Shown here in pieces: positions 9,736 to 43,379 of a DNA stretch of 50,725 bases. Position 1 is the stretch's first letter. Each line of letters opens with the position of its first letter. The position numbers and the translations under genes were made by a program. The stretch covers positions 1-50,725 of IMG/VR virus record IMGVR_UViG_3300038334_000143; one strand, 5' to 3'. The stretch comes from a virus. Its lineage: Duplodnaviria > Caudoviricetes. The notes under the pieces are model-generated. The model saw only the letters and a list, made by a program, of their open reading frames with translations, was not told where the DNA came from and made no database searches.

Positions 9736-9758
9736 TGCCTATCCGTTGTCCCTTGCGT

Positions 9759-10435: not shown

Positions 10436-10474
10436 GTGTCCCTCCGTATCGTAGAACGTCATGGCTGCAAAAAA

Positions 10475-10828: not shown

Positions 10829-10853
10829 GATCTGTTACCTCCTGCTGTCCTTA

Positions 10854-12368: not shown

Positions 12369-12380
12369 GATTGCGCCTCC

Positions 12381-13544: not shown

Positions 13545-13954
13545 TTGCCGTCACCTTCAGGCTGTTTTGTGACCTCTTCGAGCAGCTTTTGCAGTTCGTC
13601 GTTCTCTGCCTTCAACTTCTCGTTTTCGGCTTTGAGTTCGTCGTTCTCTGCCTTCAGCTCTTTCACGCCCCTCTTTTCGAGCAGCAGATTCAATTTCTCA
13701 ATCTCTGCTCTCAGCTCATCGTTTTCGGCTTTTATCCGTTCGCTATCAGCGGCAAGTGTAGCGAGTACACCGTCGGAGACAGGAGCGGCTGCCTTTTCAC
13801 CGTCAGAGAGTTTCTTGACGCGCCCCTCATCGATCAAGGCTTTCAGTTCGTCCTCGCCACCGATAATTTCTTCGGCGGCAAAGCGAGAGCCAGGCTCCGC
13901 AATGCGCTTGCGGAGCGATAGGCGATCTTTTAAGAGTTTATAATTTTGTTCCAT
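13541..13954 (-). CDS. Coiled-coil protein with LKAEN(D/E)(E/K) heptad repeats
   Basis: GGAGG RBS; tandem heptads; DNA repeat TTCGTCGTTCTCTGCCTTCA occurs twice. Confidence 0.75.
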   Translation of the reverse strand: MEQNYKLLKDRLSLRKRIAEPGSRFAAEEIIGGEDELKALIDEGRVKKLSDGEKAAAPVSDGVLATLAADSERIKAENDELRAEIEKLNLLLEKRGVKELKAENDELKAENEKLKAENDELQKLLEEVTKQPEGDGK

Positions 13955-13964
13955 GGACTACCTC

Positions 13965-15227: not shown

Positions 15228-15242
15228 CTGGTTTTTACCTCC

Positions 15243-15965
15243 TTAGATGTACAGAACGGTAATTATACCGGTCCCATTGGTTGTATCAGCGGTCAAGGTC
15301 AGACCGGCTGCAACTACAACGCTGTACGCGTTGATTAGCGTTCCAAAAGACAGGGCGTTCACGGTTGCTATCGGAACCACGCCGATAGTGTTAGTCCCAT
15401 CGGTCACTGTTACGTCCTCACTCGACACCGTTGCGAGGGCTTGTCCAATAATACCCACGATTTGCGATCCGACGGGTATATCCGCATTCACAACCGGGGC
15501 ACCTGCCGCATGCGATCCGGTGGGAACTGCTATCCTTTTCGCTTTCAGCGCACCGCCTATGAGAGCTTCGTTGCCCTGGGCGAACGGCCTGAAAACAACG
15601 AACGTGTGAGCGCCGGCTGATCCACCGAACTCGGTACATATCCCAACGGGGATACGTCCCGCAGCGTTGGCGGCCCTTATTGCTCCGGCTGCGCTCGATC
15701 CACCGGGAGCAAAAAAGACGATCTGTCCGACGACAAAAGTGTCGGCGGCTGCAATCTGATCAGTCTCGATGGTGCGCTCGTGATCAATATTGATCTTGCC
15801 GCTCGCTCCATCAGCGATACCGTCATATTCCTTCACCTCTCCGAAATATCCGTCAAGGTGGACGAGTTCGAGGTTCTCAACCGCGCGACCAAGATTGTTC
15901 GCAACGGTGACCTGCTTGTCGCTGAGAGTTTTCTCAACGAGTCCGGGGAAATCGTAGGTAGTCAT
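15243..15965 (-). CDS. Capsid cement/decoration protein (DUF2190-like N-terminus plus extra domain)
   Basis: ADTFVVGQIVFF...PVGIC pattern; between protease and capsid. Confidence 0.6.
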   Translation of the reverse strand: MTTYDFPGLVEKTLSDKQVTVANNLGRAVENLELVHLDGYFGEVKEYDGIADGASGKINIDHERTIETDQIAAADTFVVGQIVFFAPGGSSAAGAIRAANAAGRIPVGICTEFGGSAGAHTFVVFRPFAQGNEALIGGALKAKRIAVPTGSHAAGAPVVNADIPVGSQIVGIIGQALATVSSEDVTVTDGTNTIGVVPIATVNALSFGTLINAYSVVVAAGLTLTADTTNGTGIITVLYI

Positions 15966-17077
15966 TATTCGCCTCCTTCAAACTTGCTTTCGTACTGCCC
16001 GGTAGGCTCTTCGCCGCTCGGCGTTGCGCCTTCGCCACCGACACCGATGTCGCCTGGGGATTCGAGAGCGGCCTGGATATTGCCGTTCGACAGCACGGCC
16101 ATGATTGACAGCGTGGCCTCTTCTTTCGTTTCGCCGTTTTTAATGCACTCGTCAATTTTCGAGCACACAGCGGGTATCTTTTTAAACTCCGCTTTTTCTT
16201 TCATGGAGAGCAGGGCGGCTACCCGGTCTTTCTCCTGTTTTACTCCCACCGCCACGGCTGCGGCATAGATGGCGGGGTGCTCTTTCATAAGCTGCTCTAA
16301 ATTCATGATTTGAGCCTCCTGTGGATTATTTTGTCCGCCTGTGGCGGTAATTTCCTTTTTCGGTTGCTGTGGTTGAGGCTGTGCGCTCGATCCGTGTTGT
16401 GCGGTAGCGTCTAACGCGTTTCGTGATAAAGAAGGAATATCCTTTATCATCGCGGCGACTTTGAGAATGTCGTCTTTGCCTCTCGGGTCTACTCGCATTT
16501 TTTCCATTACAGTCTTTACTTTCATTGCGCCAAGAGCGAGAGCAATCTCCTTGTTTTTCTCGCCTTCGGTCGCCGGGATAATCTCGTCAACAAGTCCGGC
16601 GGTTTTAAGTTCTTCGCCGAAATACCACGTTTCGGCGTCCATGATCGCCTTTGCTTCCTCGACGCTTATTTTCATTTTTGCGGCATAGGCGGCAGCCATG
16701 AGACCCGACATGCCCTTGAAAACCTGCGCCGTTTTTTCCATTTCCCGATAGTCTCCAACGGCTCCGCCCCATACATTGTGAATCATTGCATAGGTGTTGC
16801 TGTATGCGGAAACAAGGTCAAATACGGGATTGACGAGGTTGTACGATCCCATTGAACACGCTTCACCGATCACCGTTAGCGACAACTGGGCGTCGGGGAA
16901 TTTCTTTTTATAACCCTGGAATAAATTAAAAATAGTTATCCCATAAGACACATAGCCGCCAGGAGTTGACATATATACGTCGAGGTCGTCACCGTTGGCT
17001 TTTTTGAGATCGTTTCCTATCCTTTCAGGGTCGACCTCCCATCCAATTTCTCCGATTATTTCCATTCTTGTTGGCAT
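15965..17077 (-). CDS. ClpP-type prohead protease with C-terminal scaffold
   Basis: STPGGYV, GEACSMGS (Ser), MIHN (His), ETWY...GLVD. Confidence 0.92.
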   Translation of the reverse strand: MPTRMEIIGEIGWEVDPERIGNDLKKANGDDLDVYMSTPGGYVSYGITIFNLFQGYKKKFPDAQLSLTVIGEACSMGSYNLVNPVFDLVSAYSNTYAMIHNVWGGAVGDYREMEKTAQVFKGMSGLMAAAYAAKMKISVEEAKAIMDAETWYFGEELKTAGLVDEIIPATEGEKNKEIALALGAMKVKTVMEKMRVDPRGKDDILKVAAMIKDIPSLSRNALDATAQHGSSAQPQPQQPKKEITATGGQNNPQEAQIMNLEQLMKEHPAIYAAAVAVGVKQEKDRVAALLSMKEKAEFKKIPAVCSKIDECIKNGETKEEATLSIMAVLSNGNIQAALESPGDIGVGGEGATPSGEEPTGQYESKFEGGE

Positions 17078-17089
17078 TCGATTACCCCT

Positions 17090-17458
17090 CTATTTCAATT
17101 CGCTCCTGCATTGCTCATAATTGCGATATTTCACCGCATCCTGATAATCAACCGGGTTCGCTTTTCCGTCTTCGCTGATTCCGAACGCCTCGCCCTGGCA
17201 ATATATTCGGTGCAACTTCTTATAACAGGCCTCCGAGGGCGGGACCGTGGCCGATTTATCTTTCGCCTGGTAATACAGTTTATAGGCATTCAATGACATG
17301 TTGCATTCTGCCGGGAGTTCCTCGATCCATATCGGATCGAAGGATTTGCACGAAAGGCAACTGAAGGCAATGGTTGCGCATAACGTCAAAAGCAGAAAAA
17401 AAATTATTCCTGTTTTTAAATCACTCCATCCAATTTTTAAACCATTTATTCCGAACAT
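17090..17458 (-). CDS. Putative lipoprotein/membrane protein
   Basis: Hydrophobic stretch followed by FSC/LSC lipobox-like Cys. Confidence 0.55.
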   Translation of the reverse strand: MFGINGLKIGWSDLKTGIIFFLLLTLCATIAFSCLSCKSFDPIWIEELPAECNMSLNAYKLYYQAKDKSATVPPSEACYKKLHRIYCQGEAFGISEDGKANPVDYQDAVKYRNYEQCRSELK

Positions 17459-17459
17459 G

Positions 17460-17810
17460 TTATTCCCCCGCTGGCATAGTCGGCGCGTATTGCACTTCAA
17501 ATTTCGCCGGGAATGTTTTTTCGAGAAAAGTCCCCGACGCGTCGGAAATCTCGACCCATGCTTTATAACTCCCGACAGTCAGTAAAGACGTATCCGCTTC
17601 GGTGATAATGTGTTTTGCAGTACGGCCGAGTTCGCTATCATATTCATATCCAGCATCCCAGGAGCCAAGCACATCGGCGGTACTATCTGCCCTTTTGCTC
17701 TCATAGACAATGGTCAAAACCTTGTCCGATAGATCGAGATCAGTGTCAATCGGGATGACGAGCGGCTTTGAGTATTCACCGAAAATCAGTATTTTATCTG
17801 TGCCACTCAT
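17460..17810 (-). CDS. Hypothetical Ig/BppU-like virion protein
   Basis: Beta-rich 116 aa, VGSYKAWVEI motif, RBS present. Confidence 0.45.
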   Translation of the reverse strand: MSGTDKILIFGEYSKPLVIPIDTDLDLSDKVLTIVYESKRADSTADVLGSWDAGYEYDSELGRTAKHIITEADTSLLTVGSYKAWVEISDASGTFLEKTFPAKFEVQYAPTMPAGE

Positions 17811-17831
17811 TCCCTCACTGTCTCCTCCTGT

Positions 17832-19553
17832 TCACTGCAATTTCACCTTGTCCAGCAACACTCTTCTATTTAAGTCTACTTTATTGAGCGTTATACTACC
17901 GTTATGCGAAACTTTGTCAAGCATAATCTTAGCGTTATGCGATACTTTTTGTAAAATTAGCGCTTTTAATATGACTTCTATAACTGGAGTAGCAATACGG
18001 ATAGCGTCCGTTATGCTCATCGACTCGGAGAGGGAGGCAGTAAACTGAGCGACTGACTGCATAATGTCGGTAATGGTGACCGCTTCAGAGAGCGTCCCCT
18101 TAAATTCAGCCGCTCCTCTTAGCTCGTCCGACACATTGAGAGTTTCGGCCAGGGTGGACATAAACGTCGCCGATGCCGAACAGGAGTCGGAGATTCCTAT
18201 GGAATCAGACAGGGTGAGAAAAATCGCATTTGCATAGCTGATGAAATCGGTAATTGTGAGACTTTCAGAAAGAGTCCCGGTGAAAAGAGCGGTAGACACA
18301 AGGGCATCCACAACAGGAACCATCTCGGAGAGTGTGGCTTTGAGTATGGCTAATGATCCCAAAAAATCACCGACGGAAAGCGAATCAGCGAGAACCGCAT
18401 TGAGTATCGCAGCAGAAATGAAATTATCGGAGATATTAAGAGAATCGGCCAGCGTTCCGTTGGCTTCGAGTCGCGCTCCGTCGGAATCTGAGATCGTGAT
18501 CTCATCGGACATCGATGCGCCGAACACAGCCTGGGAGGCAAGAGCATCGGAGGTTGAGAGAGATTCGGAGAGGGTGCAGTTGTAGGACGAGCCGCCGGAC
18601 TGCCATGCCCACGTTCCCCAAAATGTGGCGTTGTCAAGCAGTTGATCGGATTCGTGGGCATGCCATGCGGCCGACCTGACGGCGGTATCTATCGATACAT
18701 GTTGCAATCGGCCATCCATGTAAGACGTTCCGCCATTGCGTTCGCGACCCATATTGAGAGGCTCACCCGATAAAGACATTTCTGATGTCCTGGCATAATC
18801 ATCAACCAATCCCCCATCGAGATAAAACGCCAAATTACCCGACAAATAGGTATAACTGAATGATAGTGTATGCCAGTCTCCATATATTGCACCAGTATTT
18901 ATATATTCAAATGATCCATCGATGCGAAGATAATTATAACCGTCGTTTCCCATAAACCAACGCCAGCCAGAACCCATGATGCCGTGTGCAGCGTCTGCAT
19001 CATCAATATGCACCAATACTGATGCCGTCCAGTCTCCCGATACGGAAAAATCGGAATCGGTGTCAATATACTCAGAGCTTGCGTCGTCAAAATCTACAGC
19101 GGAACCGATAAGTCCCGAAACCTCTGACGGGGTATTATATCCTGTAGCTGTAACTCCCGCGATACGATCGGCATCTAGAGGGGTTGGAAAATACCAACCG
19201 TGATAACTATCATATGCGTTGTCAGAGCCGTAAGTATCGCTATCAGACACTGCCGCATTACGAGTGTTCGGCGGATATATCCTTACTTGCTGTGTGCCAG
19301 ATGAGGCAAGAGTTCCGGACCACTTAACCCGAAGCAGTCCAGTCTCTCCTGAGTTGTCAAAATCGATCCAGTCACATGCAAGCTCTGTACCGTCTCCCAT
19401 TGCCGCACGGCCCCGTGTGCCATCAGATGAATCGACATCAGCCCACCATGACGACGACATGCGTGACAGATCGACGATAAACGTAAAATCAGTCAGCGCG
19501 CTAGACGGATTGCTTATCGTGCCAAGGTCATATCCGGTTGCGGGCAATGCCAT
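17832..19553 (-). CDS. LamG/ConA-like domain virion protein with ~20-aa C-terminal repeats
   Basis: GSAVDFD, WHTLSFSY, FYLDG, YMDGRLQHV motifs; about 10 repeats of TLSESLxISD type. Confidence 0.75.
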   Translation of the reverse strand: MALPATGYDLGTISNPSSALTDFTFIVDLSRMSSSWWADVDSSDGTRGRAAMGDGTELACDWIDFDNSGETGLLRVKWSGTLASSGTQQVRIYPPNTRNAAVSDSDTYGSDNAYDSYHGWYFPTPLDADRIAGVTATGYNTPSEVSGLIGSAVDFDDASSEYIDTDSDFSVSGDWTASVLVHIDDADAAHGIMGSGWRWFMGNDGYNYLRIDGSFEYINTGAIYGDWHTLSFSYTYLSGNLAFYLDGGLVDDYARTSEMSLSGEPLNMGRERNGGTSYMDGRLQHVSIDTAVRSAAWHAHESDQLLDNATFWGTWAWQSGGSSYNCTLSESLSTSDALASQAVFGASMSDEITISDSDGARLEANGTLADSLNISDNFISAAILNAVLADSLSVGDFLGSLAILKATLSEMVPVVDALVSTALFTGTLSESLTITDFISYANAIFLTLSDSIGISDSCSASATFMSTLAETLNVSDELRGAAEFKGTLSEAVTITDIMQSVAQFTASLSESMSITDAIRIATPVIEVILKALILQKVSHNAKIMLDKVSHNGSITLNKVDLNRRVLLDKVKLQ

Positions 19554-29511: not shown

Positions 29512-29792
29512 GGGAGGGGGCCTTGAATCTTGATTGCATCATGTCAGAGTGCTTCTGTAGTTGGGTGATTGAGCGGAATATCCGTGGCGAGAAAGTATAT
29601 TTGTGTAACGCTGGATACGATAGAGATGATCGCGGTCCGGATACATGCAAGTCGTATTCCAGGAGATATGAGTGTGCCGGCGGGTTGGTTTTCAGGGAAG
29701 GGGAATACACAAAAGAATATTGTCAGGAGTGCACAGATTTATGTGCCTCTACAGCCTGCCCGGTAGCTGAGAAGAGGAGAAGCAAGAAGTGA
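29508..29792 (+). CDS. Cys-rich hypothetical protein
   Basis: Coupled ORF, many Cys. Confidence 0.55.
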   Translation: MREGALNLDCIMSECFCSWVIERNIRGEKVYLCNAGYDRDDRGPDTCKSYSRRYECAGGLVFREGEYTKEYCQECTDLCASTACPVAEKRRSKK

Positions 29793-31222
29793 ATCATCAA
29801 TTTAATAATAACTATGTGACATTCGGCGATCTGTTCGCTGGAGGTGGAGGCGTCACCACAGGAGCATTATCTGTTCCAGGTATCCGCGTATTATGGGCGT
29901 TGAACCATGATGAGATATCAATCAAGACACACGAAAAGAATCATCCAGAGACAATACATTATCAGGCTGATATCAGACAGCAGAATGAGAAAGAACTGGA
30001 CCCGGTAGATATTTTATGGGCGAGTCTGGAATGCACAAATTATTCCAATGCCAAGGGTGGACAACCCAGAGATGCCGACAGTCGCACGCTGGCCTGGGAA
30101 TTGCCCCGCTATATCAAGCATTGCCGCCCGTCGGTCATCATCATTGAAAATGTGCGGGAGTTCCTCGCCTGGGGCCCACTCAATGAAAAAGGAAAACCGG
30201 TGAGCAGACAAAAGGGCGAGGATTTTTCCCGATGGATAAAGGCTGTCAAGGAGTTGGGATATATAAATGTGGACTGGAGAATATTGAATGCTGCAGACTT
30301 CGGGTGTCATACCAGGCGGGAACGGTTATTTATTATATTCACGCGGGATGTACCGATCAACTGGAAAGAGGCGACTCATCATCCAGAGGGGAATAATCTT
30401 TTCGGTCTTCAGAAATGGCGGCCGGTGAAAGAGTGCATCGATCTGGATAACCATGGCCGATCTATATTCGGGAGAAAGAAGCCCTTGTCAGAAAATACAC
30501 TGCGACGGATAGCCGGGGGAATAAAAAGGTTTTATCCCGATATGTGCTTTTTGATGAAATACTATAATTCATCATGCAACCCTGAATCTCAGAATCAAAG
30601 CGTCAATGAGCCCTGCCATTCGGTGACAACAAAAGACCGGTTTGCCTTGGTGAATATTGAGAAGAAACATTTTATGATGAAGTATTATAGCGGAGGGGAT
30701 CATGTTTTTGAAGTTAATGGACCATTGCATACTATAACCACTATAGATCATCATGCTTTAATCTCTGTGGAGAAGAAACAATTTATAACAGATCATATCT
30801 GGGGTGGAAGGACTCAGGGAACCTGTGAACCACTCAAAACGCAGATGACCAGACAAACTAAACAGCTCATTACATGTGAGAAATTCCAGTTTATCTCTGC
30901 ATATTTTAACAGCTCGGGGCGGCCTGAGACACAGAATCAGAGTCTGGATAAACCACTCAATACAATCATGACAGCGAATAAATACGCACTGGTATCCGGC
31001 TTTGATTTTGATATAAAAATGAGATTTCTCACGCCTGATGAATTGGCAAAGATTACCGGGTTTCCGGAGGGATATTTTGATCATGCTGGTCTGAATATAT
31101 CCAAAAAATACCAGGTCAAAATGATAGGCAATGCGGTACCAGTAAATCTTGCTGCGGCAGTAATTGAACCAATGGCAATTATTCTCGAAAATATAAAGTT
31201 TCCCATGGTAGCAAACATTTAA
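29789..31222 (+). CDS. C5 cytosine DNA methyltransferase
   Basis: DLFAGGGG (motif I), SLEC (IV variant), IENV (VI), RRERLF (VIII), IGNAV (X). Confidence 0.95.
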   Translation: MNHQFNNNYVTFGDLFAGGGGVTTGALSVPGIRVLWALNHDEISIKTHEKNHPETIHYQADIRQQNEKELDPVDILWASLECTNYSNAKGGQPRDADSRTLAWELPRYIKHCRPSVIIIENVREFLAWGPLNEKGKPVSRQKGEDFSRWIKAVKELGYINVDWRILNAADFGCHTRRERLFIIFTRDVPINWKEATHHPEGNNLFGLQKWRPVKECIDLDNHGRSIFGRKKPLSENTLRRIAGGIKRFYPDMCFLMKYYNSSCNPESQNQSVNEPCHSVTTKDRFALVNIEKKHFMMKYYSGGDHVFEVNGPLHTITTIDHHALISVEKKQFITDHIWGGRTQGTCEPLKTQMTRQTKQLITCEKFQFISAYFNSSGRPETQNQSLDKPLNTIMTANKYALVSGFDFDIKMRFLTPDELAKITGFPEGYFDHAGLNISKKYQVKMIGNAVPVNLAAAVIEPMAIILENIKFPMVANI

Positions 31223-33738
31223 TGACACCCGACATTTTTAACGAAGCGCGCCGCCGCGTATCCCGCTCACTCATTGAGCAGTATTTCGCCGCGCCTGGTG
31301 CGCACTGGGACGGGTCCGAGTATTGGACGCTAAATCCCACACGCCGCGACAAGAAAGTCGGGTCGTTTCATATATCCGCCGAAGGGCAGTATTTCGACCA
31401 CGCTACTAAAGACGGAGGAGACATAATTGACCTATTGGTTGCCATCCACGGAGTCACAAAAAAAGAGGCGGCTGAAAAGATCATCAGCGATACCGGCGGC
31501 ACTACACCCTCCCAGGAGAAGCGGCAAAAGATCGAGCGGGAACAGCAGGCGGACCGTAAGGGCGTCAAAAAAGAAAAGCCACCGGCACAAATACCGATCC
31601 CGGAGGCCGAACGCGAGAGCCTTGTCCGTACCCTGGAAAACGACTTTTTCAGGGAGAAGTACGGGGAATTCACCGCCGGATATACATACAAGACTATGGC
31701 GGGCGACTGGGCATTTGTGGGGGCGCGTTTCGAGCGGAAACAGGTTGATGCAGAAGGCCGGGAATACATCGAAAAAAACGTGGTGCCGTTCTATTTCACA
31801 ACAACGGGAAAATGGAAAAACGCTCTGCCTCCGCTACCTGGGAAATTGCCGTTGTACAAGATAGACGAGTTCGGGGCGATGAAGAAAAAAACCGGGGCGC
31901 GCTTCCTCATCGTCGAGGGCGAGAAATGCGCACAGGTGATGGTCCCCGGCTGGATCGTCGTCTCGTGGGTCGGCGGCACGAATAAGGTTCATCTATCCGA
32001 CTTTTCACCCCTGGCTGATTACCCGGTAGCGATATGGCCGGATCATGACACACAAATAGACAAAGAGACGGGCCTGCCTCTCCCTGACGTAGAGCAGCCA
32101 GGAATAAAGGCCGCACTCTCAATCCGGGAAGCTCTGCCACACGCTCAGATTATGGATGTGCGGGACCGCCCGGGGGACGGCTGGGACATCGCCGACGCTG
32201 CCGAGAGCATGTCGCCGGAGGAGTTGGCCGCGTATGTAGAGACCTGCCCGCGACTATTCGAGGAAATGCCCTGGGAGCCATACGACGCATTCCGGCAGTT
32301 CGTCGCGGATCGCTACGAGGACCGAAACCTCGAACACATAGACGGTCTGTTTTGGGAGTACAAGGCGGACGCGCATTGCTGGCGCGAGGTGATGCAGACT
32401 AATATTAAGACAGATATTCTGTGGTGGATGGAACAGAAAAAGATTGTGAAATTCCTCCAGAACAACGCCAAGGCGGTGCATACATTCCTGAAAAATACCG
32501 CGTCTCACCTCGAATTTTATTCCACCGGTTATTCGGGGAGAAATCCGTTCAAGGAATCGGCCATCATGCCATATATCCATTTTATGAACGGGGCTGTTGA
32601 GATCAAAAAAACCGGTGTGAAATTCCATGAACGTGCCCAGGACAATGAAGATTTTTTCCGGCGATTATACCCGGTGCATTGTCTTGATTTTGATTTTCAT
32701 CCCGAGGCCTACGAAGGTGCCCCACTGTCGGAAACGGCACCGGCATTCCATTTTTATCTGCGGGAACTCATCCCGCCCGAGGACCGGAGGCGGTCGGACT
32801 ACGAGGAGCAATTGCAACTCACCATTGATTTTTTCAGCCAGATAATTGCTTACGCTATCAACCCGATAAAAAAAGAGCCGTACTTTTTCGCATTGTATGG
32901 AGCACAGAGGGCCGGGAAATCGTTTTTTATTGATATCCTCGAACAGCTCATAGGGCAGCAGTTTTTCGTGAAGCGACCGACCTCGGATATGATCGGCAAT
33001 CGCTTTGCAACGTCTGATTTGTGGGGTGCAAAAGTGTTCGTGGACGATGACGTGGAGAGCAACCTGAAGCTGCCAGACGCGTTTATAAAAAACAACTCAG
33101 GGAATAAAGGGATCACGGTCGAGCGCAAGCACATGACGCCGGTGCATGGAGTAAAAATATCCGTGGCGATGTTTTTTCTATCCAATCACAATTTTAAAAT
33201 ATCTGGCGGTGCTGAAGGACTTGCCCGGCGATTTGTATATGTGCCATTTGATCGGGAAATCAAAAACCCGGACGTGTATCTGCTGGACAAAATTTGCGGG
33301 AAAGAGCCGAAAGACTTTGAGAGCGGCGACGCGGTGGGGCAAACCTTCGATGAGCGCCCGGCTATTATCGGCATGGCCCTGAGAGGATGGGAACTTTTCA
33401 GGAAAAATAATTATCGATTTGTAATGCCGGACTGGATCAAGCGAGAGCGTGACAAGTGGCTCATGGAGTCGTCGAGCGTGTCGCAGTGGTTTTATGAGGA
33501 ATTCCTCGATAGCTACAAAAGCGACCGGATCAGCAGAAAGGAATTTTATGATCAATATAAATCATGGTGTGACGAAGAAGGCCGCAAGGCCATGGGGAAA
33601 ATCAAGTTTTTTGAGGAAGCCAGGCGGACACGACGAATCAAGGAGATTAAGGGGAATATGGACCGGTACGTGGAGATATTGTCAGACATTGACGATACTC
33701 CGAGCGACGAAAAATTGCAGGAAGAAATACCGTTTTAA
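31222..33738 (+). CDS. Primase-helicase (TOPRIM plus SF3/D5/P4-type helicase)
   Basis: IVEGEK and IWPDHD TOPRIM motifs; GAQRAGKS Walker A; FLSNH; ARRF. Confidence 0.9.
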   Translation: MTPDIFNEARRRVSRSLIEQYFAAPGAHWDGSEYWTLNPTRRDKKVGSFHISAEGQYFDHATKDGGDIIDLLVAIHGVTKKEAAEKIISDTGGTTPSQEKRQKIEREQQADRKGVKKEKPPAQIPIPEAERESLVRTLENDFFREKYGEFTAGYTYKTMAGDWAFVGARFERKQVDAEGREYIEKNVVPFYFTTTGKWKNALPPLPGKLPLYKIDEFGAMKKKTGARFLIVEGEKCAQVMVPGWIVVSWVGGTNKVHLSDFSPLADYPVAIWPDHDTQIDKETGLPLPDVEQPGIKAALSIREALPHAQIMDVRDRPGDGWDIADAAESMSPEELAAYVETCPRLFEEMPWEPYDAFRQFVADRYEDRNLEHIDGLFWEYKADAHCWREVMQTNIKTDILWWMEQKKIVKFLQNNAKAVHTFLKNTASHLEFYSTGYSGRNPFKESAIMPYIHFMNGAVEIKKTGVKFHERAQDNEDFFRRLYPVHCLDFDFHPEAYEGAPLSETAPAFHFYLRELIPPEDRRRSDYEEQLQLTIDFFSQIIAYAINPIKKEPYFFALYGAQRAGKSFFIDILEQLIGQQFFVKRPTSDMIGNRFATSDLWGAKVFVDDDVESNLKLPDAFIKNNSGNKGITVERKHMTPVHGVKISVAMFFLSNHNFKISGGAEGLARRFVYVPFDREIKNPDVYLLDKICGKEPKDFESGDAVGQTFDERPAIIGMALRGWELFRKNNYRFVMPDWIKRERDKWLMESSSVSQWFYEEFLDSYKSDRISRKEFYDQYKSWCDEEGRKAMGKIKFFEEARRTRRIKEIKGNMDRYVEILSDIDDTPSDEKLQEEIPF

Positions 33739-33768
33739 TAATGAGCGGAAATGTAACAGGAGGAAGAC

Positions 33769-34008
33769 ATGAAACAGATTGTACGAAAAAGACCGTGGCG
33801 ACTCGGTGAAGGTGATGAACTATTCGATCGCAAGACAGGACAGTGGTATCCAGTAAAAGGCTCGTCGATATCTTCGCGGCACACAGGAGCCACTCAATCA
33901 ATTGACTGGATATATATTGATGGCGCGGCTTACGGGTATAAGGCGCTATGTATACGTTTTGACAGAGATCATCGGGGGCTCGTGGTGCGGGTAGATGCGA
34001 AAGAGTAA
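33769..34008 (+). CDS. Hypothetical protein
   Basis: GGAGG RBS. Confidence 0.65.
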   Translation: MKQIVRKRPWRLGEGDELFDRKTGQWYPVKGSSISSRHTGATQSIDWIYIDGAAYGYKALCIRFDRDHRGLVVRVDAKE

Positions 34009-34036
34009 AAAAATTTAATTTTTTGAAAAAAAATGC

Positions 34037-34112
34037 TTGACATGTACGTACAAATGACGTACATTCATAATATAACAAATTAACAACCGGCGGGTTTAAA
34101 ACGCAGGAGGCT
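34037..34112 (+). promoter_or_regulatory. Promoter with TGTACGTACA operator (copy 1)
   Basis: TTGACA-N17-TACATT, A-tract UP element, palindrome 34043-34052, leader GGCGGGTTTAAAACGCAGGAG. Confidence 0.75.
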
Positions 34113-34115
34113 TAC

Positions 34116-34376
34116 ATGAAACACCCTCAATACAAATCACCCAAAGGCCAAGTTTACACATGCGTAGCATGGGCCATCGACTTCGGTCGTACCAACTGGG
34201 AATGGTACGGATTCGAGAAAGAAGATGGAAACATCTATTTCGGGTTCGTCCATGGTTTTGAGGATGAGTTCGGTTACTTTTCAGCCGACGAGCTGAGAGA
34301 GAACGGGATCAAGTTAATCACTGATCCCAGGGAGCTGAATCAAATAGCTCCTCCGATCGGGTGGGACTTTGCCTGA
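34116..34376 (+). CDS. DUF2958-like protein
   Basis: WEWY...YFGFVHGFEDEFGYFSADEL. Confidence 0.75.
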   Translation: MKHPQYKSPKGQVYTCVAWAIDFGRTNWEWYGFEKEDGNIYFGFVHGFEDEFGYFSADELRENGIKLITDPRELNQIAPPIGWDFA

Positions 34377-34382
34377 GAAAAA

Positions 34383-34402
34383 GGGGGGCCGCAAGGCCCC
34401 CC
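34383..34402. terminator. GC hairpin (possible terminator or processing site)
   Basis: GGGGGGCC-GCAA-GGCCCCCC preceded by an A-run. Confidence 0.5.
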
Positions 34403-34435
34403 ACTCAGAAAAAATATAATAAGGGGGATCGGGTT

Positions 34436-34657
34436 ATGAAAATGAAATATGATTACTACACGCAAACAGACGGTTTTCCGGAAGCAAAAATTACTCTTTC
34501 GCAAGCACTCAATATTGCAAAGCGTTTTGGGATGAAAAAAGAAGAAGCGAAAGAGCTTTTACAAGACCCCAGCGAGGGAGACATTGAATTTAAAACTATA
34601 TGTAATGGTTTCGAGCGGTCAATTTCAATATGGGCCGAGGAAGCGATGAATTATTGA
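34436..34657 (+). CDS. Hypothetical protein
   Basis: GGGGGA RBS. Confidence 0.6.
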   Translation: MKMKYDYYTQTDGFPEAKITLSQALNIAKRFGMKKEEAKELLQDPSEGDIEFKTICNGFERSISIWAEEAMNY

Positions 34658-34710
34658 TCACCATCAGCCGCCCGCCGGAATATCCGGCGGGCTTATCTCG
34701 GGAGAACATA

Positions 34711-35502
34711 ATGGAACTTGTAAAACGACACACTGTAAGCGATATATTCCAAATCAAAGTCGAGCTGCTGCGACAGATCGGAGACCTGCAAAAACTCAAT
34801 AACGCCATAGACGAGGGGTATAAAAAGCTGGATGGATATTCCCCGTTGAGGCTCGAAAATCGCTTCGACAACTATGATAAGAATCGAGAGGAAAAGCACG
34901 TTGACCGGACCTGCTGGCTGTATCTGATCAAACTTTTCGAGCTGCAAAAATACATGCTTTGTACGGACTACGAGAAAATGATGGAGGATATCGACCGGTT
35001 TAACTTCCCAGTGTTCACGGTTGAAAACGCCGAGGGATATCTGGGCAGCCTGAAAGACATCATTTACAATAATGTCCGCGAAATGATGCGGTCAGTATTC
35101 GAGCGGATCACCGACAGTCATTATTATACTGGCAACGGGTTCAGGGGCCGGGCTGAAAAGAAGCGGAATAATAACGGGATCGACAAGCATTTCATTATAA
35201 CGACTTACGATTATTCCCGTGTATTTGAGTACTGGAGAAGGGGGCCGTCCATTACAGACGATCTTGAAAAACTATGTTACATTCTTAACGGGGAGACGCT
35301 GCCAAAAGAAACAATCATGCAGCAGTTTAACCGATTCGAGCCGGACACGACGGCCGAGAATAAGTATTTTAAAATTAAGATTTGCAAAAATGGAAACACT
35401 CACTACTGGATCAAAGAGTCAACCAGGAAAAAATTAAATCTTTATGGCGCGGACCCTTCCAGTATAGGCGAGGGGATGAAAATAAAAGTTTTCCAGAATT
35501 GA
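34711..35502 (+). CDS. DUF4942-like protein lacking a methyltransferase domain
   Basis: VDRTCWLYL, FPVFTVEN, DDLEKL, NKYFKIKICKNGNTH pattern. Confidence 0.7.
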   Translation: MELVKRHTVSDIFQIKVELLRQIGDLQKLNNAIDEGYKKLDGYSPLRLENRFDNYDKNREEKHVDRTCWLYLIKLFELQKYMLCTDYEKMMEDIDRFNFPVFTVENAEGYLGSLKDIIYNNVREMMRSVFERITDSHYYTGNGFRGRAEKKRNNNGIDKHFIITTYDYSRVFEYWRRGPSITDDLEKLCYILNGETLPKETIMQQFNRFEPDTTAENKYFKIKICKNGNTHYWIKESTRKKLNLYGADPSSIGEGMKIKVFQN

Positions 35503-35531
35503 TATTTTTTTAAATTTCAGAAAAAAAGTTG

Positions 35532-35602
35532 TTGACAAGTGCGCCATTTGTACGTACATTATAAACATAAGATAACGAACGGCGGTTCTAAAACGCAGGA
35601 GA
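35532..35602 (+). promoter_or_regulatory. Promoter with TGTACGTACA operator (copy 2)
   Basis: TTGACA-N17-TACATT, palindrome 35549-35558, leader GGCGGTTCTAAAACGCAGGAG. Confidence 0.75.
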
Positions 35603-35607
35603 AAAGC

Positions 35608-36048
35608 ATGAAACAGTTCAAAATCATCCGCGAAGTTACTCTCAAATACAAGACAGGAGAAAGAGTCCGTGAATACAAAATGGGCTCTCCTGAAGCGGTC
35701 TTCAATTTTCTGAAAGATAAAATTGGCGACGAAGCTCAAGAAAACATGGTTGCCCTTTATATTAACAACAAAAATGAGCTTCAAAGCTGGGCGCTTGTAT
35801 CTCGCGGAACGATATCTGAAACAATCGTTCATCCGAGAGAAGTCTTTAAATGTGCCCTTCTCTCTAATGCCAGCGCCGTGATCATGGTCCACAATCACCC
35901 ATCAGGGCACCTGAAACCCAGCATGGAAGATATTAACGCTACAAAGAGGATCAACGAAGCCGGGATGCTTCTTGGAATTCCGCTTCTCGATCATATAATC
36001 ATCAGCAGCGAGGGCTTTTACTCGATGAGACAAGAAGCCTTTCTGTAG
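35608..36048 (+). CDS. RadC-like JAB-domain protein (JAB only)
   Basis: VHPREVF, HNHPSG..PS.ED, LLDHII. Confidence 0.93.
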   Translation: MKQFKIIREVTLKYKTGERVREYKMGSPEAVFNFLKDKIGDEAQENMVALYINNKNELQSWALVSRGTISETIVHPREVFKCALLSNASAVIMVHNHPSGHLKPSMEDINATKRINEAGMLLGIPLLDHIIISSEGFYSMRQEAFL

Positions 36049-36099
36049 AACACCGGCCCCCGCTCCGGCGGGGGCTTAAACCCAAAAAAGGAGGAGGCC

Positions 36100-36411
36100 A
36101 TGAATAAAATACGAGATACCAAAGACAATGAGATAATCAACAGCATAAAACGCCTTGACCGGATCGGAGCAGAGGACAGCAAGGCGATACAGAAAATTAA
36201 AGACGCAGCTCTGAACGTTGCGCGGTACGTGGTGGCAAATAGGCTGCTGGATCGGTTGCCAGGCTTCACAATCTACGGGGACACGCTGATCGATCCCCAC
36301 GGGAAACCGATCGGGCGCGATATGACCAGGGAGACGGCACTCGATTTTTCCAGGGTGATCCACCAGGTGAAACTATTACCAGGAGGAGACCATGGCGAAG
36401 ACGAAGAATGA
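36100..36411 (+). CDS. Hypothetical protein
   Basis: GGAGGAGG RBS. Confidence 0.7.
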   Translation: MNKIRDTKDNEIINSIKRLDRIGAEDSKAIQKIKDAALNVARYVVANRLLDRLPGFTIYGDTLIDPHGKPIGRDMTRETALDFSRVIHQVKLLPGGDHGEDEE

Positions 36412-36586
36412 AACCAATAAAAGCGACAGCAGAAAAGAAGGCCGATTATATCTGCGGTGCTCCGAGGAGATGAAGGCCAGGCTCCAGGAGATCGCCGACA
36501 GCGAAAACCGGAGCCTGACGAACTATATCGAGACGGTGCTGAAAGACAAGATTGTCAGGTATGAGGCTGAGAAGAAAAAGAAATAA
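36392..36586 (+). CDS. Arc-like ribbon-helix-helix regulator
   Basis: RLYLRCSEEMKARLQEIADSENRSLTNYI. Confidence 0.85.
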   Translation: MAKTKNETNKSDSRKEGRLYLRCSEEMKARLQEIADSENRSLTNYIETVLKDKIVRYEAEKKKK

Positions 36587-36651
36587 TGATCTTGACATTT
36601 TAAAAGTGCATGCTCTTTATTTAATAAATAAATCAAGAGGAGAAAACTAAA

Positions 36652-37038
36652 ATGCTCAATTTAATCAGATTTATAAAAGACAATAAAGAAGACTACGAAA
36701 AGCTCAAAAATATTGAAAGTGAAAAACGAGCCATTGCGAATAGATTTATTAACAAGGCCCTCGAATGGTTGAAACCATTAGAACAGCAAGGGCTTATAAG
36801 TATATCAGTCAAGAATGAAAAATGCAAACACGATCTCGATTTAATTGATTTTGGCGTTAAGGCATTGGGAAAAACTATCTGGATAAGACAGATTACATCT
36901 CCAGAAGTTTTCGAAATAAGAATCGGTCAAACATCAATTTTTTATAAAGATGGTATATGGATACACCCGGAAAGGGGGGCACATGAAGTCAACGAAGATG
37001 TTTTTGATGAAATTTTAGTAGATGAGCTAATGAATTAA
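36652..37038 (+). CDS. AT-rich hypothetical (moron-like) protein
   Basis: Own TTGACA at ~36592 and GAGGAG RBS. Confidence 0.7.
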   Translation: MLNLIRFIKDNKEDYEKLKNIESEKRAIANRFINKALEWLKPLEQQGLISISVKNEKCKHDLDLIDFGVKALGKTIWIRQITSPEVFEIRIGQTSIFYKDGIWIHPERGAHEVNEDVFDEILVDELMN

Positions 37039-37058
37039 ATTTGTCAAATAATCAAGCC

Positions 37059-37379
37059 CTATTTCCTCCACCCTCTCAAAATCTCCATGACGCCCCGGCG
37101 GACCCCCTCCGGGGCCTTGCTATATAATCGCAGTAGCTCCTGTTCTTCCTGGGAGAGATGCGCCTGCCCGAACAGATCGGTGAGATCGAGACCGAGAGCA
37201 TCAAGGTATTGAATTATCCCGTCAAAGGGCGGTTGAGGTGAGCTTTCCCATATCGACACTGTCGCCTGGGTGACGCCTGTTTTACCAGCGACATCTTTCT
37301 GGTTCAATCCGGCCTGTTTTCTCAACTCCTGGAGGGCCTTTCCGTAATGAACATCTTTCCCGTTCTTTCTCGCTCCCAT
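37059..37379 (-). CDS. XRE-family HTH regulator
   Basis: LQELRKQAGLNQKDVAGKTGVTQATVSIWES; EQELLRLY C-terminal tail. Confidence 0.9.
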   Translation of the reverse strand: MGARKNGKDVHYGKALQELRKQAGLNQKDVAGKTGVTQATVSIWESSPQPPFDGIIQYLDALGLDLTDLFGQAHLSQEEQELLRLYSKAPEGVRRGVMEILRGWRK

Positions 37380-37522
37380 GCAAAAACCAATTGCATATAA
37401 CGTCGGACAGTCAACCATATAAAAATAAAAATATACCAATTAAATAAACATATTTAATAAACATGGGAAAATATAAAGAAAATTTATATGACAGCCCGAT
37501 GGGGCTGCAAGAGAATGACGGC

Positions 37523-38170
37523 ATGAGCACGGGCGGGAAAAATAAAGGGCGCAGACGGGGCGATGATGTATTCAATCTCACACAGGATCACCAGTTTTTT
37601 GAGATGGCGACAATTGTTATTCATCGAGATGGCGTTTTTCTGTGGGCGTCCAGGCAGGCAGAACTCATTCTCGGCGGGCCTGTAACTGGGCGGCACGTGC
37701 GGGATCATGTCGGAGAGGAATTTCACAGCCTCATGGACCTGGTCCTCGGGCGTATCCTGGCGACTGGACGATCCGGCCCAGAATCGACGATTCGCTATAT
37801 ATCATTATCCGGGGAATCGCTATACATCCACATGGCGTCGTACCCGGTAATCTGGCAAGGGGAGCCTGCAATACTATCAATCGGAACCGACAAATCGGAC
37901 ATTCAAGCGATGGCAGCATTTATCTTTGAGTTGCTGGCAGTGAAACTATCGCCGCGCGAGATGGAATTCATGATCCTGCGTGCGCGAAAATGGAGCTACG
38001 GGGATATCTCCCAGGAGTGGGGCGTCGACCGGTTGGCCGTGAAGAATTACAAGGGAATTATCAAGGGGAAATTAAAGACCGATGCCGAGGGATATGAGCA
38101 GACAATCGAGTTCGTCAGACTGCATCTATTCTATACGCGCGCGGAGATTCCGCCAGAACAACCATGCTAA
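37523..38170 (+). CDS. PAS-domain plus LuxR-type HTH transcription factor
   Basis: PAS pattern IVIHRDGVFLWASRQAELILG...SYPVIWQGEPAILSIGTD; HTH LSPREMEF...SYGDISQEWGVDRLAVKNYKGIIKGKL; start could be 37463. Confidence 0.8.
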   Translation: MSTGGKNKGRRRGDDVFNLTQDHQFFEMATIVIHRDGVFLWASRQAELILGGPVTGRHVRDHVGEEFHSLMDLVLGRILATGRSGPESTIRYISLSGESLYIHMASYPVIWQGEPAILSIGTDKSDIQAMAAFIFELLAVKLSPREMEFMILRARKWSYGDISQEWGVDRLAVKNYKGIIKGKLKTDAEGYEQTIEFVRLHLFYTRAEIPPEQPC

Positions 38171-38332
38171 ACATTTGTGTGTTCACATGAATCCGTGTGA
38201 CCTTTTTTTTCCGCCCGATCGGATTAATTTTTTGACAACGTAATACAATTATACAATATTGGTGCATGCGTTACAGTAGCGTGTAATGAGTCGGGAGGGC
38301 GATAAAATCCAATAAAGGGATAAAGGAGGATC

Positions 38333-38536
38333 ATGTTGAGAGCAGAACAGAAAAAGAATTCAATCAGGCAGCGCCCAGGGAGGGGGGCAGCCAGTAGAAC
38401 AGAGAAGGCGGCAAAGATCGTGAAGGCTGTTAAGGCCGTAAAAAAAGACGCCGAGAGAGAGAGGCGTCTTTCAAAAAAGAAACGGGGGCTAATGCTGCAA
38501 CTGGCTCAATCATTAGAAAAATTAAATCATAACTGA
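38333..38536 (+). CDS. Small basic protein (smORF)
   Basis: AAGGAGG RBS; TTGACA at ~38233; converges on cI. Confidence 0.7.
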   Translation: MLRAEQKKNSIRQRPGRGAASRTEKAAKIVKAVKAVKKDAERERRLSKKKRGLMLQLAQSLEKLNHN

Positions 38537-38877
38537 ATACCAAGAGTTCGATTCTTGTCGTAAAACGTCTCAATGGTCTGTATGAGCAATTCAAACAGGC
38601 CATTGTGTTTTTCGGGGAGTTTGTCAAATGCACGAGCCAGCCTTACAGCCTCTTCAGACATTTTCAAGTATTTTGCAATTTGTTCATCTGTAAATAAAAG
38701 ACGGATCGGTTCTACGCCTAAAGCCTCCGCAGCCATTTCGATAGTTTCAGTATTTAAATGATGCCGTCCTGTTATTTGAGAAATATTACTCTCGGACCTC
38801 TTCATTCGTTTGGCCATTTCTCCACGAGATACCCCATATTCCGACATGACCTCTGCAATTCGATCTCCGTAGTTCAT
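38527..38877 (-). CDS. CI-like XRE repressor (no peptidase domain)
   Basis: VSRGEMAKRMKRSESNISQI...AAEALGVEP; divergent from early operon across AT-rich 38880-39060. Confidence 0.8.
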   Translation of the reverse strand: MNYGDRIAEVMSEYGVSRGEMAKRMKRSESNISQITGRHHLNTETIEMAAEALGVEPIRLLFTDEQIAKYLKMSEEAVRLARAFDKLPEKHNGLFELLIQTIETFYDKNRTLGIQL

Positions 38878-39075
38878 TATCACCCCTCAATAAAATATTC
38901 ATTATGTAATATTTAAATACAAATAATATCAATATATCAATATTGTAATATATATCGGAAAGAAACAACTATATTTTTAACTTTTTTTAAAAATAATGTT
39001 GACAAAAGCAATAAAATAGCAACAATGTGACGTAATCAGTAACGAAATAAACACAATAAACCGGGAGGGGCCAAG

Positions 39076-39231
39076 GTGAGCAAGACACATTTGGGACTTT
39101 ATGTGGAATCGGTCGACAAGGATGATTTTCAGCAAATCGTCCGCGAAGAAAAGGCCAAGGACAAAAATCAGGATCACGGGAGCATCTTTCGCAACATGCT
39201 GAAAATATTTAAAGAAACAAGGGAAAGTTAA
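39076..39231 (+). CDS. 51-aa ORF at cro position (RHH-like; absent from ORF track)
   Basis: GGAGG RBS, GTG start, MSKTHLGLYVESVDKDDFQQIVREE..., stop abuts next ATG. Confidence 0.65.
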   Translation: MSKTHLGLYVESVDKDDFQQIVREEKAKDKNQDHGSIFRNMLKIFKETRES

Positions 39232-39232
39232 T

Positions 39233-39547
39233 ATGTTCGGCGGCAAAATAAAAAACCTGCGCAAAGATGCAGGTTTGAGTCAGAAAGACTGTGCGAGAAT
39301 TACCGGGGTAAGCCAGTCAACAATATCAACCACTGAAAAATCAACATGGCCCGATTCCGAGTATGTAGGTAAACTGTGTGCCCACTTGAACAAGCCGCTG
39401 GGAGAATTTTGGGACAACGAAAGTCGATCTGGCAAAGCGGAAATGTCCCCTGCATCCCTTACCCAAAAACTCGAATCTTTCCCCGAGGATAAGCAAAAAA
39501 AACTGATCCAGATATTCAACGACATTATGGATTCAATCAGAGGGTAA
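39233..39547 (+). CDS. XRE-family HTH regulator (Cro-like)
   Basis: IKNLRKDAGLSQKDCARITGVSQSTIS. Confidence 0.88.
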   Translation: MFGGKIKNLRKDAGLSQKDCARITGVSQSTISTTEKSTWPDSEYVGKLCAHLNKPLGEFWDNESRSGKAEMSPASLTQKLESFPEDKQKKLIQIFNDIMDSIRG

Positions 39548-39551
39548 AGTA

Positions 39552-40289
39552 ATGAACGCACTACAAATATTTAACTACGAGAATAAAGAAGTCCGTACGG
39601 TGATGGTCGACGACGAGTTGTTTTTTGTGGCGAAGGATGTATGCGACGTGCTGGGAATAGATGATGTGAGGCAGGCGGTTGAGCGTATTGATTGTGATGA
39701 TAAGCTGACTGGTAAAATATACCACTCAGGTCAGAATCGTGAGATGTGGATCATCAATGAATCCGGGTTGTATTCTCTCATTCTGCGATCCAATAAGCCC
39801 GAAGCCCGCCGGTTCAAAAAATGGGTCACATCGGAGGTTCTCCCGTCCATCCGCAAAACCGGCTCCTATTCAATTACCGGTGACACTCGAAAACTCATGG
39901 CCCTGGCACTCATCGAGGCTGACAAAATCATCAAAGAGCAGGCTCCAAAGGTCGAGGCGTTCGACACATTTATGGATGCCGATAATGCCCTGGATATGGC
40001 TACCGTTGCCGGGTTGTTTGGTCTCGGTCGTAATAACTTCATGAAAATGCTGCGGGTCGCTCATATACTCAAAAAAGACAACACTCCATATGTTGATTAT
40101 CTGCACCATTTCAAGCCAGTGTTAAAGTCTATCACCAAGGGCGACATTATCGAAAACGTGCCTGTGACTCTGTTCAGGCCGTCCGGCGTGGAGTATGTAA
40201 TGAGGCGTTTCAACCTGCAATTAGTCAAACAGCCGCTTTTGTCCTTCGACAAGAAAGAAAAATCCAATCAACAGGAGGCCTGTCAATGA
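39552..40289 (+). CDS. Antirepressor (BRO-N plus KilA-C-like)
   Basis: FVAKDVC, INESGLYSLILRSNKPEARRFKKWVTSEVLPSIRKTG, APKVEAFD. Confidence 0.95.
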   Translation: MNALQIFNYENKEVRTVMVDDELFFVAKDVCDVLGIDDVRQAVERIDCDDKLTGKIYHSGQNREMWIINESGLYSLILRSNKPEARRFKKWVTSEVLPSIRKTGSYSITGDTRKLMALALIEADKIIKEQAPKVEAFDTFMDADNALDMATVAGLFGLGRNNFMKMLRVAHILKKDNTPYVDYLHHFKPVLKSITKGDIIENVPVTLFRPSGVEYVMRRFNLQLVKQPLLSFDKKEKSNQQEACQ

Positions 40290-40542
40290 TGTCCATGTTC
40301 TATCTCGGTCTTATTCTCGGCATTATTGCCGGTGTGCTTCTCGGACTCCTTCTTGCCGGACAGCGGAGAGTCAGGAAGGCGGCGAGTCATGATGTACGAA
40401 ATGCAAGGTGGGGCGGGTGAGTAAGAAAATGTCAGCTAAAGAACAGGCGGCTCGACGCGCAGCAGAGAGGTCTAGATTTGGGATTTCCTTTGCGGAAAAA
40501 CTTTACAACCAAATTATGCAAGAGACTACGGGAGGTAAATCA

Positions 40543-43074: not shown

Positions 43075-43156
43075 GGGAAGTTCGCATAATGGTAGTGCCC
43101 CCGGCTGTAACCCGGCAGGAACGTAAAGTTTGGAGGTTCGAGTCCTTCACTTCCCA
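43075..43156 (+). tRNA. tRNA-Tyr(GTA)
   Basis: GGGAAGT/ACTTCCC+A, D arm, CCGG-CTGTAAC-CCGG, long variable region, GGAGG-TTCGAGT-CCTTC; CCA not encoded. Confidence 0.88.
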
Positions 43157-43379
43157 CATAAAATCCCACCGCAGCCGGATACGCGGAAAGGGTCGCGGAA
43201 AGCAGCGTAAGAGAGTCGCCACGGCTCGAATCCTCGGAGAGGGGTAACGCTGAGTGGACGCCGCTGTTTAAACCGGTAGTCCGGGGGAGGAGTCCAGGGG
43301 CTTAGATGACCCGACGAATCCCCCGGCAACATAAAACGGACACGATCACGCAGTACCAGATCAAAACGGGAGGGCTTAC

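Follow-up and report, generated by a model that had tools for sequence, protein, structure and literature searches.

Positions 37059-38877 of the DNA analysed here raise the question of whether a prophage can open its repressor switch to a signal other than DNA damage. The DNA, IMG/VR virus record IMGVR_UViG_3300038334_000143, is referred to over its whole length of 50,725 nucleotides (nt) as the window; the module under study (37059-38877) carries an XRE-type helix-turn-helix (HTH) gene, a divergent gene for a regulator composed of a PAS and a LuxR-type HTH domain, a small open reading frame (smORF) and a CI-like repressor gene (Table 1). An earlier note had proposed a signal-sensing lysis-lysogeny switch at this locus, and all the genes and signals that it listed were recovered at the same coordinates. 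What is new is that the XRE/PAS-LuxR pair forms a conserved divergent cassette facing a repressor-like gene. Our favoured explanation, to which we give a probability of about 0.4, is that the cassette serves as a signal-gated, SOS-independent input into the cI switch, acting via the smORF protein and/or head-on antisense transcription. The PAS/LuxR architecture, the conserved pairing with XRE, the head-on geometry, the signals around the smORF and the HTH-only composition of the CI-like protein are counted in its favour. Under this explanation, the PAS domain would sense a ligand or state by means other than a LOV-type (light-oxygen-voltage) cysteine photocycle, the regulator, probably together with its XRE partner, would switch the downstream smORF promoter, and the output would lower CI activity, opening a route to induction that does not depend on DNA damage. 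The CI-like gene or protein is the only discernible target of this output in the phage.

Taken alone, the regulator matches PAS_9 of Pfam at a sub-threshold level (E = 6.3e-4, 20.4 bits, curated cut-off 27 bits), and it gives neither a GerE match at E ≤ 0.1 nor a PHROG match. In a model that AlphaFold derived from eight family sequences (pLDDT 80.7), residues 42-146 adopt a PAS fold (VIA-align Z 14.3, root-mean-square deviation 2.8 Å over 100 residues); the PAS N-terminus on which the earlier note had staked its reading is thus present. The C-terminal domain of the model consists of four helices, with a further conserved helix in addition. Of 12 aligned family members, all match PAS_9 and 7 match GerE (best E = 2.1e-10), and the family profile matches the PAS proteins DosP and YtvA as well as the LuxR/FixJ-type HTH proteins EvgA (3.3e-7), DesR (6.1e-7) and GerE (1.9e-5), and also VraR and FixJ. 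Because the single sequence gives no GerE match, its assignment to the LuxR/GerE class rests on the family profile and on the model helices at residues 164-204. The protein is a PAS plus LuxR-type HTH one-component regulator without specific kinship to VqmA. The earlier note was therefore right about the regulator and its divergent XRE neighbour.

The best whole-protein structural match of the regulator is EL222, the light-activated LOV-HTH protein of Erythrobacter litoralis (PDB 8a5r and 3p7n; 8a5r E = 4.9e-8), which is also the sole solved protein among 60 listed that the family profile aligns over both domains (positions 31-177, E = 8.6e-6). EL222 has a LOV photocycle, whereas the only cysteine in the longest, 235-residue form of our regulator is the last residue, with none in residues 1-234. 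This placement excludes a flavin-cysteine photocycle of the LOV type, and a photoreceptor resembling EL222 was rejected, as the PAS core lacks the adduct-forming cysteine. EL222 is chromosomal and is not known to have an XRE partner.

The open reading frame (ORF) of the regulator begins at 37463 (37463-38170), and its start codon is probably ATG 37523, because residues 1-32 of the 235-residue form are disordered in the model, the N-terminus of the 50%-identical relative P0002 aligns with ATG 37523, and none of the three ATGs is preceded by a Shine-Dalgarno sequence. The earlier note had suggested a leaderless transcript. A leaderless mRNA is plausible from the promoter-like ATGACA-17-GAGAAT that ends 6 nt before this ATG and holds a dyad (37492-37507) in its spacer; a parallel TTGAAA-17-TACGAT-6-ATG precedes one relative (L023, below), and none is seen before the paralogue in the same genome (L002). 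What did not stand is statistical backing for such a promoter, as set out below with the other counts.

The divergent XRE/PAS-LuxR pair occurs at five loci in four genera of one Spirochaetota family, namely the window, a second element of the same genome (L002/L028), L023 (genome G008), L055 (G056) and L029 (G051). Between the window and the second element the XRE proteins are 37% identical (E = 5e-24) and the regulators 30% (E = 1e-12); across the four genera, the cassette proteins found elsewhere are 21-37% identical to those of the window. All five XRE partners align end to end, including two C-terminal helices. On mobile elements of this Spirochaetota family, XRE and regulator are thus maintained together. 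In every assessable locus (the window, L023, L029 and L028; the contig of L055 ends too early), the genes that follow the regulator are directed head-on against an XRE-type repressor-like gene. Between the facing gene ends there is a 10-nt overlap in the window, a gap of 4 nt in L023 and of 0 nt in L029. A small ORF of 43-70 residues comes first after the regulator in three of the five XRE-paired loci. Two further members of the regulator family, L024 and L025, lack the XRE gene and lie divergently beside a large (531-residue) serine recombinase.

The regulator family is very rare. An exhaustive HMMER search of 1.84 billion representative proteins gave 51 matches at E ≤ 1e-3, six of which (P0002-P0005, P0009 and P0010; 192-241 residues) are full-length relatives matched in both halves; the remainder cover residues around 50-150 within larger sensor proteins, the signature of a PAS domain. 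Each of the six forms a singleton cluster, and their metagenomic contigs measure 1.1-12.4 kb. In 5.8 billion proteins searched by word index, the only matches were P0002 and the protein of the window. Strong matches (E ≤ 1e-20) were present in 2 of 401 sampled genomes of the phylum, both from the family to which the window's host belongs. Among the 64 genomes of that family, two-domain matches at E ≤ 1e-30 occur twice in G000, once in G007 and twice in G008 (one with an internal stop), and weaker two-domain members in G056 and G051. Searching 50,697 phage records with the regulator (tblastn) gave no match at E ≤ 1, pattern scans of IMG/VR and of JGI metagenome contigs found no family member, and blastn of positions 36000-40500 against phage records retrieved nothing beyond a 137-nt stretch of the Ant gene. 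No related DNA was found in any of the 63 other genomes of the host family, and hence no cassette-less sister prophage for comparison.

What would the cassette act on? The CI-like protein matches HTH families and, beyond chance-level matches, nothing else; no peptidase family (LexA/S24) was found at E ≤ 0.1. As the earlier note had seen, the protein lacks an autocleavage domain, and with 116 residues and no peptidase family, a lambda-type autocleavable repressor is ruled out. Consisting of an HTH only, it needs a trans-acting inactivator. No relatives of the CI-like protein were found. The smORF starts 163 nt after the regulator stop codon on the same strand, beyond the terminator-like hairpin and T8 run, and is preceded by a strong consensus Shine-Dalgarno sequence, AAGGAGG, at 38323-38329. 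Two short palindromes (38215-38222 and 38254-38261) lie near its promoter-like site. With this set of signals and the 10-nt overlap of the two 3' ends, the separately signalled basic ORF converging on the CI-like gene agrees with its earlier description. It is possible, though doubtful, that the smORF protein acts as a small antirepressor on CI; a complex prediction for the two proteins, run without controls, scored 0.02 and weighs neither way.

A second, rather unlikely route would be that head-on transcription or antisense RNA lowers cI expression and reads through into cro-ant. The hairpin at 38443-38472 inside the smORF is most readily interpreted as terminating the CI-like gene (-13.8 kcal/mol, z -3.3; as stable in 1 of 200 shuffles), and on the plus strand it is followed by only three U residues. 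A terminator scan found no plus-strand terminator-like site between 38201 and 39400, so a transcript from about 38267 would have to extend over the 3' end of the cI mRNA and would probably continue antisense through cI and, co-oriented, into cro-ant. P2/186-type coliphages use face-to-face promoter switches with transcriptional interference. As in these phages, convergent transcription in the lytic and lysogenic directions across the repressor region could make each state preclude the other; unlike in them, the head-on promoter would here be gated by a dedicated sensor and would lie behind the repressor gene. As a separate observation, the 10-mer TACAATATTG at the smORF -10 region (38252-38261) recurs inverted at 38938-38947 in the cI/cro control region, where it adjoins repeated ATT(A/T)TGTAATAT elements; CI or Cro could also bind the smORF promoter, or the match could be a chance product of AT-rich DNA.

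Modules of a transcription factor and a smORF, including XRE plus LuxR plus smORF, trigger prophage induction by a route independent of SOS (Silpe et al. 2023, PMC10432266). In the part of that report devoted to the Aeromonas phages Apop and ARM81ld, XRE and LuxR are both needed to turn on a smORF that inactivates cI without proteolysis. Present here, too, are a transcription factor gene beside an orphan ORF of <100 residues near a phage repressor and the three components XRE, LuxR-type HTH receptor and small ORF; the smORF, by comparison, is not counter-oriented to the transcription factor gene. As far as that description of the Aeromonas modules goes, xre-luxR form one operon with the smORF counter-oriented about 150 nt upstream, whereas here the XRE gene diverges from that of the regulator, with the smORF downstream; sensing falls to an acyl-homoserine-lactone-binding domain there and to a PAS domain here. 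The VqmA(Phage)-Qtip system of vibriophage VP882, so far as PMC10432266 and PMC12802170 describe it, likewise places a phage PAS plus LuxR-type receptor beside a small ORF without homologues near a repressor. It differs from our module in that here specific homology is absent, the smORF is co-oriented behind a terminator and there is an extra XRE partner; moreover, it belongs to VP882-like linear plasmid phages, and ours to an integrated myovirus-type prophage of a Spirochaetota host. The analogy drawn by the earlier note, in which VqmA senses a host autoinducer and induces the antirepressor Qtip, accordingly holds for two-domain architecture and module composition and fails for homology and smORF orientation.

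A number of observations weigh against a role of the cassette in the cI switch. The phage carries a conventional Ant gene as well. The smORF is co-oriented with the regulator, unlike in the published modules, and it is an orphan, its only relative being the same ORF called from its second codon; an Atlas search of it gave no feature match, only long-helix look-alikes. Codon usage is uninformative on whether the smORF codes, since 14% of true in-frame 67-codon chunks score no higher than its 0.017 and 6% of off-frame chunks score no lower. The -35 of the promoter-like site before the smORF is at consensus, which is not required of a promoter that depends on an activator, and repeats inside 38171-38332 are not enriched (3 pairs versus 4.7 expected). 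Promoter-like sites in the module region number 4, against 5.0 ± 2.4 in shuffles; not being above chance, the promoters are plausible without statistical support. The longest k-mers common to the regulator's own and its downstream promoter regions measure 7-8 nt, and k-mers that long are shared in 285, 105, 270 and 236 of 300 shuffles at the four loci compared, so that a shared-k-mer operator signal was rejected as lying within shuffle expectation. Finally, what the cassette carries downstream differs between loci and for the most part resembles accessory genes (PDC-M41 in L028; lipoprotein-like in L023, L029 and L055), and in the XRE-less locus L024 the regulator gene heads a same-strand hsdM-hsdS pair of a type I restriction-modification system, in the manner of a controller.

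These cargo genes are the core of the best-surviving rival explanation, which we regard as a genuine possibility, if a minority one: a regulated accessory-gene (moron or defence) cassette whose cargo in this phage is an orphan small protein, for example for exclusion or nucleic-acid binding, and which leaves the cI switch unaffected. It fits an XRE-paired cargo that comprises the candidate defence pair PDC-M41A/B (E = 2.7e-86 and 1.2e-73; a TcmP-like protein plus DUF5131), an aBig_2 lipoprotein-like ORF and ORFs without family, and the position of HsdM plus HsdS after the L024 regulator. The XRE protein also weakly matches, over its full length, the defence-regulator models HTH_VI (8.2e-7) and capH (1.9e-4), and restriction-modification controller proteins are among its best fold matches. 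The interval between integrase and repressor, moreover, is the usual home of lysogeny-expressed accessory genes. Against this stands the lack of any recognisable cargo here but the smORF, and the same head-on geometry towards a repressor-like gene in 4/4 loci; in three of these four (the window, L023 and L029) the 3' ends either overlap or are separated by 0-4 nt, so that the two units can hardly be independent.

Since the cassette also stands before lipoprotein and candidate defence genes, and its XRE-less kin before restriction-modification genes, its general job is more likely the signal-gated control of anything placed downstream than antirepressor control as such. In the subfamily of L055 and L029, the motif TTTGTRGWG is concentrated in the gap between the regulator and the first downstream ORF, which holds three of four copies in the 14 kb of L055 (1423-1570, 42 nt apart) and four of four in the 5.6 kb of L029 (4177-4376, in both orientations). 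This concentration points to a multi-site regulated promoter in the gap, and the copies are likely binding sites of that subfamily's regulator(s). A bolder generalization, which we consider unlikely as it stands, is that XRE/PAS-LuxR constitutes a portable "sensor plus head-on promoter" cassette that drives cargo transcription against a repressor operon in response to a small-molecule or redox cue.

Several genes near these cassettes are recorded as observations in their own right. L028 (G000:C14:264000-283000, 5948-18022) is a second prophage-like element in the same genome, with a large serine recombinase (5948-7552), an HSDR_N_2 protein, DUF1508 and the paralogous XRE/PAS-LuxR pair. An ORF for a retropepsin-like aspartyl protease (121-170 residues) lies near the cassette in two genera (L028:12898-13731 and L055:2857-3470), in both cases with a small same-strand ORF upstream of it. 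Beside the cassette XRE gene of L023 (85-1193) is an antitoxin-like ORF with a SocA/Panacea domain (200 residues, E = 8.5e-8), partnered by a 169-residue ORF matching no known family.

An improbable rival is that the locus is a decaying or silent mosaic remnant, in which recombination brought in the cassette, the smORF arose by chance over the cI terminator and nothing is regulated. The GC content of the cassette (0.53-0.54) exceeds that of its flanks (0.33 and 0.42; genome 0.475), which fits mosaic acquisition, and the smORF codon signal is neutral, with promoter-like sites no more frequent than by chance. Both regulator genes are intact, however, with own-frame codon scores of 0.14 and 0.10 (CI-like 0.09, Cro-like 0.11); the pair is maintained at the divergence given above across four genera, and the smORF has its consensus Shine-Dalgarno sequence.

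Still less probable is a SinR/SinI-type circuit, in which the smORF product would target the XRE partner, sequestering its C-terminal helices and resetting the cassette. The AlphaFold2 model of the XRE protein (pLDDT 84.7) shows an HTH (VIA-align Z about 10, residues 6-72) followed by two C-terminal helices, and its only Foldseek match at E ≤ 0.001 is SinR in the SinR/SinI complex (1b0n_A, E = 7.7e-4, 100 columns, TM 0.49). VIA-align, by contrast, superimposes SinR on the HTH alone (residues 11-72, Z 8.9), no better than many other XRE proteins, and so does not corroborate a SinR-like reading of the XRE protein beyond the HTH. In addition, the smORF shares no sequence likeness, by eye, with the XRE C-terminus; it does not align with the small ORF of L023, and the small ORFs at other loci are unrelated.

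That the regulator is a true VqmA-family quorum-sensing receptor for 3,5-dimethylpyrazin-2-ol (DPO) with a Qtip equivalent is highly improbable, for although Foldseek finds the same two-domain fold in phage VqmA (7dwm_A, E = 1.1e-6, TM 0.45-0.47, 209 columns) and Vibrio cholerae VqmA (6ide_B, E = 1.3e-6), the specific structural likeness sought by the earlier note did not emerge (TM 0.45 at 14% identity, with EL222 and generic PAS domains scoring equally well or better), no VqmA chain is among the 7 phmmer matches at E ≤ 10, the profile aligns 6ugl, 6kju and 6ide solely over HTH positions 128-178, and the gene order is different.

Table 1. Features of the module and its neighbourhood (window positions) and of related loci (positions within the locus named). 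aa, amino acids.
Feature	Position	Strand	Details
XRE-type HTH gene	37059-37379	-	106 aa from ATG 37379; HTH_3 E 8.5e-10
AT-rich divergent control region	37380-37522		143 nt, 31.5% GC
Promoter-like ATGACA-17-GAGAAT	37488-37516	+	ends 6 nt before ATG 37523
PAS + LuxR/GerE-type HTH one-component regulator	37523-38170	+	215 aa from ATG 37523
Terminator-like hairpin and T8 after regulator gene	38183-38208	+	7 pairs; hairpin and T8 at 38183-38200; -7.7 kcal/mol, z -2.2
Promoter-like TTGACA-17-AATATT upstream of smORF	38232-38260	+	10/12 consensus positions
smORF	38333-38536	+	67 codons; net charge +15, pI (isoelectric point) 11.5; predicted single long helix
Intrinsic-terminator-like hairpin for CI-like gene, inside smORF	38436-38472 (hairpin 38443-38472)	-	10-bp stem, U-run
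CI-like repressor	38527-38877	-	116 aa, HTH only; HTH_31 E 3.6e-5; phrog_4583 'transcriptional repressor' E 2.2e-6
AT-rich cI/cro control region	38878-39075		24.7% GC; repeats 38892-38915 and 38931-38954
Promoter-like TTGACA-16-AACAAT in cI/cro control region	38999-39026		
Rightward early operon	39076-40289	+	smORF orientation; divergent from CI-like gene
Cro-like XRE	39233-39547	+	
Bro-N/KilAC antirepressor Ant	39552-40289	+	
Facing XRE-type gene, L023	4232-4645		divergent from small rightward ORFs
Facing XRE-type gene, L029	3115-3585		
Facing XRE-type gene, L028	14878-15258		divergent from small rightward early-type ORFs; four intervening minus-strand ORFs
Cargo, window			67-aa ORF alone
Cargo, L023			43-70-aa lysine-rich ORF; 371-aa and 150-aa ORFs; lipoprotein-like content
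Cargo, L028			53-aa ORF (good codon score); PDC-M41A/B candidate defence pair; two more ORFs
Cargo, L029 and L055			lipoprotein-like ORFs (including aBig_2 lipoprotein-like); ORFs without family
XRE-less relative, L024 (G007:C25)	5016-10340		
XRE-less relative, L025 (G008:C8)	7200-9420		

The window is a myovirus-type prophage, as the earlier note had it, with a tyrosine integrase (1-1167), a gpA-type terminase, and genes for tail sheath, baseplate, tape measure, portal and protease; beyond its right end, the first host-type metabolic genes appear after about 3.3 kb. The host belongs, as had been suspected, to a group other than Vibrio: it is a Spirochaetota metagenome-assembled genome (MAG), whose 383-residue RpoB fragment shares 84-87% identity with MAGs labelled Leptospirales or Spirochaetes and at most 70% with all other sequences listed. 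Four DNA runs of one groundwater-metagenome study contain the stretch, on contigs identical to it and without joints; among the sequencing runs listed as containing it there is no RNA run. The Leptospira-type SOS box, TTTGN5CAAA, matches the window twice against 1.34 expected, and neither match is near the module. In the control region between XRE and regulator, near-palindromes lie at 37438-37459 and 37470-37490, and the XRE ORF stays open upstream to TTG 37439. The cro-ant operon is led by a 51-codon ORF (39076-39231) that has GGGAGGG as its ribosome-binding site and no family match, and whose codon score of 0.32 marks it clearly as coding. Farther away, a tRNA-Tyr (GTA) gene lies within the early region (43075-43157), and a rightward gene block (29789-36048) between the packaging genes and the cassette includes a C5 cytosine methylase (29789-31222), a DUF5906/D5-type primase-helicase (31222-33738), DUF4942 (34630-35502) and a RadC-like JAB protein (35539-36048), followed by an Arc/RHH-like ORF of 64 residues (36392-36586).

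Only a few 'listening' modules of phages are known, among them VqmA-Qtip, LuxR/XRE-smORF and arbitrium, from phages of Vibrio, Aeromonas, Phaeobacter and Bacillus. We found no literature on PAS-LuxR regulators in spirochete prophages, only systems from these four genera; the supplementary transcription factor-smORF loci of the published survey, which were not covered, might include PAS types. If the cassette described here controls induction, SOS-independent lysis-lysogeny control would extend to a new phylum and to integrated myoviruses, with a new sensor family and a different wiring in which a co-oriented output runs head-on into cI. The candidate defence cargo near the cassette suggests that accessory genes and induction of prophages may share one sensor. 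Should the idea of a portable sensor plus head-on promoter prove true, accessory or defence expression and the maintenance of lysogeny would constitute a signal-gated, mutually exclusive toggle, and the single-smORF cassette of this phage would serve purely as an SOS-independent induction trigger; no sensory switch of this kind would have been known before from an integrated myovirus or from beyond the Proteobacteria and Firmicutes.

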